A DNA stretch of 64,000 nt, taken from contig JBJBDC010000001.1 of NCBI GenBank assembly GCA_047285535.1, positions 1,824,136 through 1,888,135 on the forward strand. The letters run 5' to 3'. Below the pieces are notes generated by a model that did not search any database, had not been told where the DNA came from, and was given only the letters and a program-made list of their open reading frames with translations. The translations under genes and the position numbers were made by a program. Shown here one piece after another: positions 7,009 to 10,836 of this stretch. Position 1 is the stretch's first letter. Each line of letters begins with the position of its first letter. The DNA comes from Synechococcus sp. (GTDB lineage: Bacteria > Cyanobacteriota > Cyanobacteriia > PCC-6307 > Cyanobiaceae).

Positions 7009-8450
7009 CGATGCAACAGACAATCTCGAATGAATTAATCAGATTTCATGAGGTTCTTGCATCCAATTCTCACGTAAAGAGATTTGCGGAAAAATGGCTA
7101 TCCGACCCATCATTTCGAGAGGCCTTTCGAATCAACCCCAAACAAACTCTCTCCCAACATCACATCAAGCTTGATGAAAACGAAATCGTTCTCATCAGCG
7201 AGGGGAAACCCTCATCGGCTCTTGAACACCTGGAAGAAATTAAGCGTCAAAAGGAAATCTGGACTCATCACTTCTATAGCCAGACGTGCGCACCTATCGA
7301 TGAATCATGGCTGAGCTGGCGCAAACGCCAAGTTTCGCGGCAGATATTCGACCTTGGACCTCAACATGCGCTCTCAAACATCCACTCATCTCTGACTGTT
7401 GAACTAAACAAAGGTTGCAGTGTCGGCTGCTGGTTCTGCGCTTTAAGCCCTGACAAAAACACTATTCCGATGTTGTATGACTCTGGAGGGGAAGCTCGGT
7501 TCTCCACCTTGATTCGCGCGATGCAAAAAGAGCTTGGTCCTGCGGTGAAAAGCGGATTCCTCTATTGGGGAAGCGAGCCGATGGACAACCCTGATTACGA
7601 GCGTTATTGCCTTGATTTTCATTCCATCACAGGTGTCTTTCCTCCCACAACAACAGCACTACCCCATAAAGACCCAGAGCGTACGCGTCGATTTTTAAAA
7701 CTTGCTGATAAGCACAATGCCTGGCTGAGCCGATTCAGCGTTGCTTCGACAAGTCTCATGAATCGCATCCACTCTCTTTTCACAGCCGAGGAACTCGCCA
7801 CAACCGAGTGCCTGTCCCTGAATGCTGAGAGTTCTTTCTCGTTTGGTGTAGGAGGTCGATACCGCGATTATCTAAAGAAGCACCCAGAGATCCTTCAAGA
7901 GCAAAAGCAGAAACTAAAAAATGCACCTTTTTACGAGGAGATCAAGGAACATCTAAATGAAGAAACGCATGCGCACGGCTCCATTGCCTGTGTAACAGGT
8001 TTCCTGGTTAATTTAGTAGATCAATCGATTGCATTGATTGCACCTACCCACGCTGATGATGAGCACCCTCTGGGATATATCACATTTTCCAAAGAAACCT
8101 TTTCGAGCAATAGTGAAATCGTCAGCACAATCAGAACTGTTGTAGAACGCGGCAGAATTCTGGCACTCCGAAACAAAGATATCTGCGCTTTTCCCTGCTA
8201 CATCAAATGGGACCAGGACAAATCCGACATTATTTTTCAGGGTAGGCTTGGTACCAAGATTCGAGCTAAAAGTCTTGGTAAAAAGCCTAATTTGAATAAA
8301 CTATGTACTCTACTCAGCCACGGCAACCATTCGAAGCAAAAGATAGTTTCATCCTTCCCCAAAGAAAAAGAATGGATCGAATCAGTCCTCCATCGCCTAT
8401 GGCTAATGGGTGTATTGAAAGAGCCTAGCCATGCTAAAACAACTCCATGA
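7005..8450 (+). CDS. Radical SAM peptide epimerase, PoyD/OspD (proteusin) family
   Basis: ELNKG-CSVGCWFC (CxxxCxxC, C138/142/145), GFLYWGSEPMDNPDYE, FPPTTTA, RFSV and SIACVTGFLVN match motifs I recall from PoyD-type epimerases. ATGA overlap with the dehydrogenase gene. Confidence 0.85.
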   Translation: MTMQQTISNELIRFHEVLASNSHVKRFAEKWLSDPSFREAFRINPKQTLSQHHIKLDENEIVLISEGKPSSALEHLEEIKRQKEIWTHHFYSQTCAPIDESWLSWRKRQVSRQIFDLGPQHALSNIHSSLTVELNKGCSVGCWFCALSPDKNTIPMLYDSGGEARFSTLIRAMQKELGPAVKSGFLYWGSEPMDNPDYERYCLDFHSITGVFPPTTTALPHKDPERTRRFLKLADKHNAWLSRFSVASTSLMNRIHSLFTAEELATTECLSLNAESSFSFGVGGRYRDYLKKHPEILQEQKQKLKNAPFYEEIKEHLNEETHAHGSIACVTGFLVNLVDQSIALIAPTHADDEHPLGYITFSKETFSSNSEIVSTIRTVVERGRILALRNKDICAFPCYIKWDQDKSDIIFQGRLGTKIRAKSLGKKPNLNKLCTLLSHGNHSKQKIVSSFPKEKEWIESVLHRLWLMGVLKEPSHAKTTP

Positions 8451-10836
8451 TTCGGTGCCTCCAACTCAGCGACTTGCAAGCTGGTTCATCACCAAGCCTA
8501 CTGCTCATGAAACGATTCAGCACAGAAAAAGACTTGTTAAAGGGTCTTTAAAAGGCGCATGGGGTGAAATCTATGAGAATGATCTCCTCTATCAGAATGG
8601 AGAGATCGACTTCACCCACCCTGATCTGCCAGCATGGATCACACACGCGGATCGCATCGCTTCTTCTCCTCCACTTAGCTTTGCAAGGGATTTAGGAACA
8701 ACACCAAAGTCGCGAGAATTATTCTTTTTTCTATCACCAATCACCAACTATGGATACAACCTACTAACAGAGCATCTGTCATCTATTGAGATAGAAGTTT
8801 CAGACATCGCCATTCAAGGAATGATAGCAGGACTTGGGCACAGAATCATGCAGACATGCGTTGATATTGCTGATATCGAAATCAGTGCATGGTTTAATCT
8901 TGCCAAGTCACTCGGAGATCAAAAAAATCCACAAATCACTATCGATTCATCCACCTATCCGGATCTTTATGAACGCTATCCTGCCTTAGCATTCATTATC
9001 GGCCATGGCATTGGCCAATGGTTCGAAGCCGTCAAAGAGATGACAAGTCGCCTAGCCGAGGACCTTCCTCGACTGCAAGAGTTTTTATTTAATAGCCATC
9101 GCATCCACCGCCTCGAAGATGTCTCGATGGATACGGGAGACATTCACGATGATGGTCGATCTGTAGCCCTACTGACATTCAATAACGAGCAGAAAGTGGC
9201 CTACAAGCCCAAAGACCTCAGGATTGCCAAAGAAGTTCAGGACCTGTTTGACATTATCAACAATAAAATTGGCAAGAAGATTCTGCACGTTCGCACAATC
9301 ATTGTTGGGCAGGGATATGCATGGGAAGAATTCATACCCCATTCTGAGTGCAATTCATCCCTTGATATTTCCCTTTATTATCAAAGATATGGGGCCATGG
9401 TCAGAATTTATGAACTTCTACAAGCTCGCGATCTCTGGCTGGACAATGTCATTGCCCATGGAGCCTGGCCCGTAGTCATTGACCTCGAAATGGTTATGCA
9501 ACCCTGGATGGCTCCAAGCGAGGCAAAAAATGCCTGCGAGTTTCATGCGCAGGAGCTCATCGAGCAAACAGCGCTTCCGATCGGCTTGATCTCGATGATG
9601 TTCCCGATAGATGCTGATGAACCCCTTGAAGACATGGGTGGTTTAACACCACACCGGCCGTTTCGTACGCCATTCCGAATGCCTTCAATAATCGAAGTGG
9701 AAGGTAAAAGCAACAGTCGCGTGTATTTAAATAATGACATTTACACTCCACGACTTGGCACTTCCATCGTTAACTCACAGGCCTGGCTTGACGATGTCCA
9801 AAAGGGTTACAACGAGATGGATCAACTCATTGAAGATACTGTTCAGCCAGATATTCGACAATGGCTAGATCAACTTAATCCTTCATTTCCTGTACGTGCC
9901 ATTTACAGAGATACGTGGACATATCAGCAGATCCTGAATAGCTCCTGTGCAGGAAAATATTTACGATCTGTGTTCCATCGCGAAGCCTACCTAGCAAAAT
10001 TGCCCACCAGCCTTCAATTTCTTTATCCATCGCATTCTGCTCAATCACGAATTGTCTTTTCTGAAATTGAACAACTACGACAACTGGACATTCCTTATTT
10101 TATTTCCGAACTAAATGACGGAGAGCTCCGCGAAAGTACAGGTAAGAGTTTGGGCACAATTTTTCATGGCAGCCCTCTCGCGAGCATGAAACAGCGCTGT
10201 TATTTCCCTGCAGAGAAAGACTTCAGACGAGATTGTCTGGCAGGTGCTTTAGAAACAGGCCATGGAAGCCAGGGCACCGAAACGCGCATTGTTCTTGCCT
10301 TAAGTGCCTCAACCCTGGAAACAATTCACGAGATCAGCCATCTGCTGCTGTCTTGGTCCATCAATCTTGAAGGTGATTATGCCTGGATCACTTACACCGC
10401 ACATCCAGCAACCAAAACCGTTGTGCTCCAATCCATTCGCCCCACCTATCCGGGCATGCTGAAGGCGGCAATTGCACTCCGCAAAGCACAGCTATGCACA
10501 GGACTTTCTTCACTGACACCCGCGATCCAATCCCTCAGACGCCAGGTAGACGTCTGCCGCAATCAAATCATCGAATCGATAGCCGCCTCCTGCAGCCAAC
10601 CTTGGCATCATTCGGAGGAGGATGGATTACCAGGGATTGAAAGAGGGAAGGCTCATTTGGATGAACTACTGATGATGGGGGCACCATCCCCTACTACCAA
10701 ATCCGGCCCTATAGCTGTTCAGCTGCTTTCGACAACCCGTATTCCTCCAAGGCTATGGCTACTTGGAGAGCATGGCGTCTTTGCTCTACTTGATTCACTG
10801 TGCAGTCAGCACCTCGCGCATCAGGATGCTGGTTAG
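8431..10836 (+). CDS. LanM-type (DUF4135) Ser/Thr dehydratase with truncated/vestigial cyclase domain (PoyF-like)
   Basis: LanM N-terminal motifs GDIHDDGRSV, YKPK, WEEFI, YYQRYG, DLWLDN, IDLE, RAIYRDT, LDIPYF. Only ~200 aa follow, with no intact WCxG/CHG zinc-ligand motifs. Confidence 0.85.
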   Translation: MLKQLHDSVPPTQRLASWFITKPTAHETIQHRKRLVKGSLKGAWGEIYENDLLYQNGEIDFTHPDLPAWITHADRIASSPPLSFARDLGTTPKSRELFFFLSPITNYGYNLLTEHLSSIEIEVSDIAIQGMIAGLGHRIMQTCVDIADIEISAWFNLAKSLGDQKNPQITIDSSTYPDLYERYPALAFIIGHGIGQWFEAVKEMTSRLAEDLPRLQEFLFNSHRIHRLEDVSMDTGDIHDDGRSVALLTFNNEQKVAYKPKDLRIAKEVQDLFDIINNKIGKKILHVRTIIVGQGYAWEEFIPHSECNSSLDISLYYQRYGAMVRIYELLQARDLWLDNVIAHGAWPVVIDLEMVMQPWMAPSEAKNACEFHAQELIEQTALPIGLISMMFPIDADEPLEDMGGLTPHRPFRTPFRMPSIIEVEGKSNSRVYLNNDIYTPRLGTSIVNSQAWLDDVQKGYNEMDQLIEDTVQPDIRQWLDQLNPSFPVRAIYRDTWTYQQILNSSCAGKYLRSVFHREAYLAKLPTSLQFLYPSHSAQSRIVFSEIEQLRQLDIPYFISELNDGELRESTGKSLGTIFHGSPLASMKQRCYFPAEKDFRRDCLAGALETGHGSQGTETRIVLALSASTLETIHEISHLLLSWSINLEGDYAWITYTAHPATKTVVLQSIRPTYPGMLKAAIALRKAQLCTGLSSLTPAIQSLRRQVDVCRNQIIESIAASCSQPWHHSEEDGLPGIERGKAHLDELLMMGAPSPTTKSGPIAVQLLSTTRIPPRLWLLGEHGVFALLDSLCSQHLAHQDAG

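Follow-up and report, generated by a model that had tools for sequence, protein, structure and literature searches.

A short LanM-like protein with a reduced, zinc-less cyclase-like domain and its probable role in a dehydrazole-type proteusin pathway of Synechococcus sp.

The "dehydrazoles" were defined in 2023 by Pei, Zhu, and Nair (PMC10676384), who described the LanM-like enzyme CcaM ("LanMbC") of the carnazolamide pathway in Chryseobacterium carnipullorum. CcaM has 1,015 amino acids (aa) and consists of a DUF4135 domain and a zinc-less, full-size cyclase-like domain of about 370 aa. It is described there as dehydrating only Ser that precedes an azole, independently of the leader and with no lanthionine formed, and the product of the carnazolamide epimerase carries D-Pro15. 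A year later, Delawska et al. (2024, PMC11583998) described nostatin A from Nostoc sp., a nanomolar cytostatic with a 30-residue core in which dehydroalanine (Dha) or dehydrobutyrine (Dhb) precedes every azole, and inferred NstG to be its dehydratase. Here, we report on a related locus in a 64,000-nucleotide stretch of Synechococcus sp. (contig JBJBDC010000001.1, positions 1,824,136 to 1,888,135; the window), where a LanM-like protein of 801 aa, P0001, is encoded behind a proteusin-type precursor and three other modification enzymes. Judged from its sequence and by analogy with these two systems, P0001 is probably the dehydratase of a nostatin/carnazolamide-type pathway. The CcaM-type enzymes that have been characterized, or nearly so, are long, and P0001 is a shortened natural variant of this recently described enzyme type.

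P0001: a complete DUF4135 domain and a shortened cyclase-like domain

An earlier note, made by a model from the letters of the DNA alone, had proposed a LanM-like enzyme with kinase/elimination motifs and only a vestigial cyclase domain; its open reading frame (ORF) boundaries agree exactly with ours, and the frame has 801 codons. Pfam PF13575 (DUF4135) matched P0001 over profile positions 1 to 377 of 378 with 264.9 bits and was the sole domain at an E value of ≤0.01, a threshold at which PF05147 (LANC_like) gave no match. The NCBIfam LanM model (TIGR03897) aligned residues 100 to 697 with positions 2 to 620 of 932 and, at 293.3 bits, missed its cutoff of 304. A phmmer alignment with CylM (Protein Data Bank [PDB] entry 5dzt; E = 1.6e-28) allowed every catalytic residue to be placed. 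D334, N339, D351, and K259 correspond to the phosphorylation residues Asp347, Asn352, Asp364, and Lys274 of CylM, while D237, H239, R489, and T495 correspond to the phosphate elimination residues Asp252, His254, Arg506, and Thr512 (roles as described in PMC4550811). All eight are invariant in an alignment of the 13 short-form proteins described below, which bears out the motifs of the earlier note.

The AlphaFold2 model of whole P0001, with the family alignment as input, had a predicted local distance difference test (pLDDT) score of 83.5 and a predicted template modeling (pTM) score of 0.83. When this model was searched against the PDB with Foldseek, LicM2 (E = 6.7e-25) and CylM (E = 1.2e-23) were found, with no other strong match, and the VIA-align Z scores for residues 1 to 797 were 26.5 and 25.4, respectively. 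Compared with a class II LanM, P0001 has the DUF4135 part and lacks a complete toroid, the Cys-Cys-His zinc ligands, and a score reaching the NCBIfam cutoff.

The difference lies in the C-terminal part. A MAFFT alignment with 11 long relatives indicated that about 200 internal toroid residues are missing from P0001, while the roughly 180 aa that remain comprise toroid helix 1, the beta-hairpin (AW..Y.HP...L), helices 2 to 4, and the last helix. Residues 600 to 801, folded separately, reached a mean pLDDT of 89.0. With VIA-align, they were superposed on LicM2 610 to 1013 (Z 12.7, root mean square deviation [rmsd] 2.7, 167 residues aligned) and on CylM 608 to 984 (Z 10.1, rmsd 3.3, 165 residues aligned); the third-best match was a designed helical protein (Z 8.9, 77 residues). 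These 165 to 167 superposed residues compare with roughly 380 to 400 in the full cyclase domains of CylM and LicM2, so that the structural comparison reveals no complete toroid. Foldseek with the C-terminal domain by itself returned nothing at an E value of ≤0.001 (best, LicM2 at 6.1e-3 and CylM at 1.2e-2), and the kinship to LanM cyclases is drawn from the VIA-align, profile, and MAFFT alignments. Among hhalign comparisons with 13 longer relatives, P0001 56 to 696 aligned with 23 to 663 of a 938-aa protein and the alignment ended there.

Zinc ligands had been reported missing from the last 200 or so residues, and the alignment agrees: across the 13 sequences, residues 600 to 801 contain no invariant Cys or His column, the best being H658 (11 of 13) and C689 (8 of 13). 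The LanC-like motifs that had been singled out are also in place, at W652...Y673-P674-G675, G732-L-P-G-I, and L777-L-G-E-H-G-V-F-A-L-L. "Vestigial" is too weak a word, however: these motifs sit in a conserved, confidently predicted domain, with 13 of the 182 columns from residue 620 to 801 invariant, and are not scattered remnants, and CcaM needs its full-size counterpart for dehydration. On the model and the alignments, P0001 ends in a conserved, folded domain that amounts to about 40% of a cyclase toroid, shortened by internal deletion and zinc-less, and not one in decay.

Pei et al. (PMC10676384) showed the zinc-less domain of CcaM to be indispensable without showing the reason. That P0001 keeps only two helical hairpins from its start, together with the beta-hairpin and the helix that closes the toroid, points to the part of the domain that matters and offers a smaller protein for structural work. 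We propose that this retained mini-domain is the portion of a zinc-less cyclase domain on which the dehydratase depends, as structural support or for binding the azole-bearing core. We advance more tentatively, as a possibility we would not bet on, that the 180-aa half-toroid is a natural minimal module for azole-core recognition by a zinc-less LanM-type dehydratase and that short-form peptides are nostatin-like with a 2-acylthiazole (2-propionyl- or 2-acetyl-) N terminus.

A small clade of short-form proteins

Database searches identified 13 proteins of the short form, all 790 to 816 aa long, with full query coverage end to end and PF13575 as the only domain. Identity within the group goes down to 34%, and 95 of the 377 DUF4135 columns are invariant. 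We built a profile from these proteins and searched it against 1.84 billion cluster representatives (E ≤ 0.001). Of 7,806 matches, only 3 were end to end (803, 815, and 790 aa; 1,128 to 1,299 bits). The next best was a 926-aa protein with 468 bits, and the remainder were mostly 900 to 1,100 aa long and aligned only up to about profile position 700. By pattern search, the nearest long matches have RDxWxxN and lack CHG and WCxG; both zinc motifs were present in 18 of the 151 matches of at least 850 aa and in 0 of the 44 long matches listed as P0051 to P0095.

A tree of the shared N-terminal 700 to 760 residues was computed from 49 hand-picked sequences (13 short proteins, 32 long matches, and 4 zinc-type LanMs as the outgroup) by a fast tree search in which some long branches were flagged. 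The short proteins were monophyletic (SH-aLRT support, 100), their sister was the 926-aa protein (SH-aLRT, 98), and these together were sister to the 31 long zinc-less proteins (SH-aLRT, 97) when rooted on the zinc-type LanMs. We read this only as a single origin of the short form, apparently beside the CcaM type; among 10 proteins checked by the names of their cluster members, none could be recognized as CcaM or NstG. The profile ranking, motif survey, and tree all group P0001 with the zinc-less long relatives and not with zinc-type LanMs.

The short form is rare. Of 401 sampled genomes of the phylum, the source genome was the only one to encode it; the other 36 matches in these genomes were frames of 970 to 1,166 aa with 23 to 32% identity, and none of 5 genomes of the same genus matched P0001. 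In a second family of the phylum, the long nostatin-type form was present in 3 of 389 genomes. The closest named relatives are from metagenome-assembled genomes (MAGs) of Bacteroidota, Ignavibacteria, and Kapaibacterium (52 to 53% and 46% identity), a distribution that would fit a cassette spread by horizontal transfer.

We also considered whether P0001 could be a pseudogene that recently lost its cyclase part by frameshift. We rejected this, as the stop codon lies just 78 bases from the next, convergent gene, which leaves no room downstream, and a length of 790 to 816 aa is kept in all 13 short-form proteins.

Cluster, precursor, and predicted product

The precursor, the E1-like/YcaO fusion, the SagB-type dehydrogenase, the PoyD-type epimerase, and P0001 are encoded in this order on the same strand, with the enzyme genes overlapping at their stop and start codons (Table 1). 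The fusion scored 229.3 with TIGR03604 (cutoff, 219.25) and 108.1 with TIGR03882 (cutoff, 36.9), the SagB protein scored 118.9 bits with TIGR03605 (cutoff, 78.4), and the epimerase has its CxxxCxxC motif as CSVGCWFC at residues 138 to 145. The context of CcaM, in which YcaO and a dehydrogenase are encoded close to an NHLP precursor whose core is rich in Ser/Thr/Cys, recurs here, and the same cassette was found at all four other loci with enough flanking sequence (L001, L002, L003, and L052). A genome search found P0001 to be the only DUF4135 protein of the host.

Table 1. Features of the cluster, in window coordinates
Feature	Coordinates	Strand	Details
TolC-like outer-membrane efflux protein	210..1790	-	Pfam OEP 134.5 bits; TIGR01844 weak
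Decayed second precursor copy	2155..2474	+	ATG lacking; frame change; TAG inside; intact gene about 450 bases downstream
NHLP-type (proteusin) precursor, 116 aa	2916..3266	+	Leader residues 1-89, ending AVAAGG
Core peptide, 27 aa, TCQSTASTAGTIPSCVSSASSASSKCQ	3183..3263	+	From translation
E1-like leader-binding domain + YcaO cyclodehydratase fusion, 750 aa	3353..5605	+	Pfam YcaO 297.5 bits
SagB/ThcOx-type FMN dehydrogenase (azoline to azole), 467 aa	5605..7008	+	Start overlaps YcaO stop; Pfam ThcOx, Nitroreductase
PoyD-type radical SAM peptide epimerase, 481 aa	7005..8450	+	TIGR04517 348.4 bits, cutoff 325
P0001, LanM-like, probable dehydratase, 801 aa	8431..10836	+	Start inside epimerase gene, 20-base overlap
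DUF4135 kinase/lyase domain of P0001, residues 183-559	8977..10107	+	Pfam, CylM alignment
Zinc-less cyclase-like domain of P0001, reduced, residues 620-801	10288..10833	+	hhalign, MAFFT, VIA-align, predicted fold

The TolC-like gene opens a divergent export operon that continues beyond the window with an HlyD-like protein, an ABC exporter with a C39 peptidase domain, and a second ABC exporter, best matched by the models NHLM_micro_ABC1/ABC2 and NHLM_micro_HlyD, i.e., the NHLP export set. The C39 exporter (P0039; L028, G000:C1:1808000-1826500) combines Peptidase_C39 (110.9 bits) with ABC; by our reading of the sequence, its peptidase domain carries the Cys of the C39 motif within QYEAAECG and a His further on. 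Of the five C39 matches in the source genome, this is the single one that adjoins the cluster. With five such matches but a single DUF4135 protein and a single intact precursor of this family, the genome probably also exports double-glycine peptides from other loci. The L001 and L003 genomes have one C39-ABC frame each (731 and 730 aa) on another contig, where adjacency to the cassette is only possible.

The leader of the precursor scored 42.4 bits with TIGR03793 (leader_NHLP; cutoff, 50.9) and matched NHase_alpha weakly. We assign the precursor to the proteusins despite this, because the exporters are best matched by NHLP-type models and the epimerase scores above the cutoff of the PoyD model. 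Ten relatives with 61 to 78% identity were found in databases. The translation confirms that the core begins with Thr, as had been noted, and Cys follows directly; in all 12 aligned precursors, the residue after GG is Ser (10 sequences) or Thr (2 sequences) and the next one is Cys. This invariant GG-(S/T)-C junction predicts unusual N-terminal chemistry. Compared by eye, with GG set on Ala1-Ala2, the GG plus core and the published nostatin A core are identical at 17 of 28 comparable positions. This placement brings the core Pro onto Pro15 of nostatin and the Ser/Thr-azole-Ala triplets into register.

A search of the source genome with the precursor found the intact gene and the decayed copy and nothing else of this type. 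The decayed copy was recognized as fragments in two frames and by DNA alignment with the intact gene; the precursor profile matched it in two pieces, at positions 9 to 50 and 48 to 115, one of which contains the TAG. It still shows GG and a core-like end (…TAGGPCQTT…SKC). Precursor number differs among the related loci. L052 (positions 1829-4794 on a 2.17-Mb metagenome contig) has five tandem precursors of the same family ahead of the same four enzymes, with GG-S-C junctions in four and GG-S-T in one. L001 (2838-4751) and L002 (same coordinates), from the Bacteroidota and Ignavibacteria MAGs, have one nostatin-like precursor and four more NHLP precursors with AG/AGA junctions and unrelated Cys-rich cores, which suggests that a single set of enzymes may act on cores of several types.

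The pathway we propose takes its order of steps from CcaM. First, the YcaO/E1 fusion and the SagB protein would turn Cys2, Thr5, Thr8, Cys15, Ser18, Ser21, Ser24, and probably Cys26 into azoles. With ATP and Mg, P0001 would then phosphorylate the azole-preceding Thr1, Ser4, Ser7, Ser14, Ser17, Ser20, and Ser23 and eliminate the phosphate to give Dhb or Dha. The PoyD-type epimerase would invert the conserved Pro. Finally, the adjoining C39-peptidase ABC exporter would cleave after GG during export; the presence of such an exporter beside the cluster makes this cleavage likely. About seven dehydrations are expected, rather than one at Thr1, because the core aligns with nostatin A, where every azole-preceding Ser/Thr is dehydrated. 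No thioether rings are expected from a zinc-less cyclase-like domain that amounts to just about 40% of a toroid. The earlier note had likewise argued that no lanthionine is made, that Cys goes to thiazoles, and that dehydration falls to an ATP-dependent LanM-type enzyme and not to a split LanB, and homology to CcaM (PMC10676384) and NstG (PMC11583998) supports this.

If Thr1 is dehydrated like the other azole-preceding residues, GG cleavage would expose an enamine, with Dhb joined to the thiazole. Hydrolysis of an N-terminal Dhb to a 2-oxobutyryl group is established in lanthipeptides (PMC6054071) and for polytheonamide (PMC9505594). Here, the Thr1 carbonyl would become C2 of the thiazole, and from the chemistry we infer a 2-propionylthiazole, or a persistent enamine, instead of an alpha-keto amide. 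An N-terminal cap derived from Thr1, as suggested before, is plausible given the conserved junction and the adjoining C39 exporter; a 2-oxobutyryl amide is not the form that we would expect it to take. To our knowledge, no 2-acylthiazole end group has been described for ribosomal peptides. No sactionine is predicted because Gly replaces Cys12 of nostatin, and no alkylated Pro is predicted because the cluster has no methyltransferase gene. With thiazole as Tza, oxazole as Oxa, and methyloxazole as mOxa, the product would be [propionyl]-Tza-Gln-Dha-mOxa-Ala-Dha-mOxa-Ala-Gly-Thr-Ile-D-Pro-Dha-Tza-Val-Dha-Oxa-Ala-Dha-Oxa-Ala-Dha-Oxa-Lys-Tza-Gln. V-ATPase has reportedly been named as the target of nostatin A in a 2026 preprint. 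The potency of nostatin A would make simpler-tailored relatives such as this one useful for structure-activity work.

The modification operon has a G+C content of 0.435 to 0.469 against 0.50 to 0.57 in the flanks, for which reason it seems inserted; the exporter genes are near the genomic value (0.51 to 0.54). Low in G+C and specific to this strain, the operon looks like an acquired island within a cyanobacterial genome of 3.0 Mb. Scans of positions 1700 to 11100 were uninformative: 12 promoter and 10 terminator sites were found where 12.3 and 8.6 are expected from shuffled sequence. For positions 2800 to 10900, no RNA data set was listed; ten DNA data sets were, of which four may come from the source. 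Four DUF2079 membrane-protein paralogues, together with a PMT-type glycosyltransferase, lie on both sides of the cluster (10915-12567 and 12820-14259 on the minus strand of the window; L028 5583-7274 and 9070-10491 on the plus strand). A Photo_RC gene for a photosystem II reaction-center protein (247.7 bits) is at 14578-15633 on the minus strand, 3.7 kb downstream of the cluster, and identifies the host as a cyanobacterium. In the Kapaibacterium MAG, the short LanM-like gene is directly followed by a gene for a penicillin-amidase-family protein (L003 10296-12776, plus strand; 679.7 bits), which could have a maturation or immunity role.

Alternative readings and comparison with described systems

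Several points weigh against P0001 as an active dehydratase of the nostatin/carnazolamide type. The excised DUF4135 part of CcaM (residues 1 to 645) showed no activity, and supplying the cyclase-like domain in trans did not restore it (PMC10676384), so losing about half of this domain could cripple P0001 unless the retained part is the essential one. P0001 shares only 30% identity over 581 residues with the long enzyme of a nostatin-type locus (L049). Its C-terminal domain is the least conserved region: pairwise identity averages 0.36 there and 0.54 in DUF4135. Lastly, His349 of CylM, a member of the DxH motif, is replaced by Trp336, the sole change in the catalytic site and invariant in the 13-sequence alignment; CylM-H349A is described as having only small residual activity (PMC4550811). 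In the motif survey, the characterized CcaM-type relatives appear to carry the same Trp.

The alternative that survives best, improbable as we hold it to be, takes PoyF as the model, as the earlier note did. P0001 would dehydrate only Thr1, for an N-terminal cap after leader removal, and the other Ser/Thr would stay unchanged or become oxazoles. PoyF, a cyclase-less LanM-type dehydratase encoded with PoyD in a proteusin cluster, acts on the N-terminal Thr of polytheonamide (PMC9505594), and here a PoyD-type epimerase gene adjoins P0001 and the residue after GG is invariably Ser or Thr in the 12 precursors. However, the core repeats the Ser/Thr-azole-Ala triplets of nostatin A, in which all such Ser/Thr are dehydrated (PMC11583998). 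The nearest relatives in the profile search and tree are zinc-less long enzymes of the CcaM type, with PoyF itself outside this comparison, and the closest characterized relatives are likewise of the CcaM type. We therefore do not adopt PoyF as the model.

Slightly less credible still is that the internal deletion has killed the activity, so that P0001 is degenerating and the cluster now yields a plain linear azole peptide. CcaM requires its fused cyclase-like domain (PMC10676384), the second precursor copy is already a pseudogene, and the low-G+C operon resembles an acquired island. Against this, the architecture is kept in 13 proteins of 34% identity or more, with the invariant columns reported above for both domains, the reading frame is intact and translationally coupled, and the fold is predicted with confidence both for the whole protein and for the C-terminal domain. 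That P0001 is only a kinase that leaves phosphate on Ser/Thr, like the LanM-like, cyclase-less phospeptin enzyme EmbM, which halts at phosphorylation, is the least credible reading, as EmbM is described as lacking the elimination residues (PMC9505594) and P0001 has kept all four, invariant in 13 of 13 sequences.

Taken together, we retain the reading of P0001 as a probable dehydratase of the nostatin/carnazolamide type, and it is to these systems that the locus compares best. With the CcaM system, it shares a DUF4135 dehydratase candidate without zinc ligands, an NHLP precursor, YcaO, a dehydrogenase, and a radical SAM epimerase, as well as a Ser/Thr/Cys-rich core with a central Pro. It differs in that the cyclase-like domain has an internal deletion and about 180 aa where CcaM is full size, in that the cluster in the window has no methyltransferase, and in its maturation: an S8 protease removes the CcaA leader by cleavage between Ala residues (PMC10676384), whereas our locus combines a GG motif with a C39 ABC exporter.

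The nostatin A cluster has the same order of precursor, cyclodehydratase, oxidase, PoyD-like epimerase, and LanM-like enzyme. The L049 locus encodes a core one residue off the published nostatin A, followed by YcaO (764 aa), SagB (492 aa), a PoyD-type epimerase (475 aa), and a LanM-like enzyme of 1,069 aa with DUF4135 and a partial LANC_like Pfam match; directly upstream of its precursor lies a gene for a SnoaL-like protein (18073-18528, minus strand). In contrast to our precursor, GG is absent from the nostatin-type leader, and Ala-Ala stays in the product before Dha3-thiazole4 (PMC11583998; L049). Nostatin also has a sactionine at Cys12 and an alkylated Pro made with an extra radical SAM methyltransferase, and both that Cys and the methyltransferase are absent here.

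The more distant comparisons are with PoyF, the class II LanMs, and a marine Synechococcus protein. Compared by description only, P0001 resembles PoyF as a LanM-type dehydratase candidate that lacks a functional cyclase, shares its proteusin cluster with a PoyD epimerase, and would act on a Thr that becomes N-terminal. Unlike cyclase-less PoyF, it still has a cyclase-derived domain, and where PoyF performs a single dehydration and the Thr carbonyl stays an amide and gives an alpha-keto amide, many sites are expected here and the Thr1 carbonyl would be part of a thiazole. CylM and LicM2 (PDB 5dzt and 6st5) are the best whole-length structural and sequence matches and have the same kinase/lyase residues; P0001 differs from them in having no zinc ligands, about 40% of the toroid, Trp in place of His349, and a score under the NCBIfam LanM cutoff. 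A "LanC-like" DUF4135 protein of the marine Synechococcus strains UW179A and BIOS-E4-1, described bioinformatically with a CylM-like dehydration domain, His349 changed to Trp, and YcaO and SagB beside it (PMC10783134), belongs to a cluster that, compared by that description, differs by a P450, by nine precursors of different types, and by lacking an epimerase.

Against this background, the earlier interpretation was correct in outline and had been anticipated by the literature of 2023 and 2024, and short forms may already figure in the supplements of PMC11583998 and PMC10676384. What this locus adds to the known systems is a reduced cyclase-derived domain seen in a small clade, together with a GG-(S/T)-C junction in its precursors.

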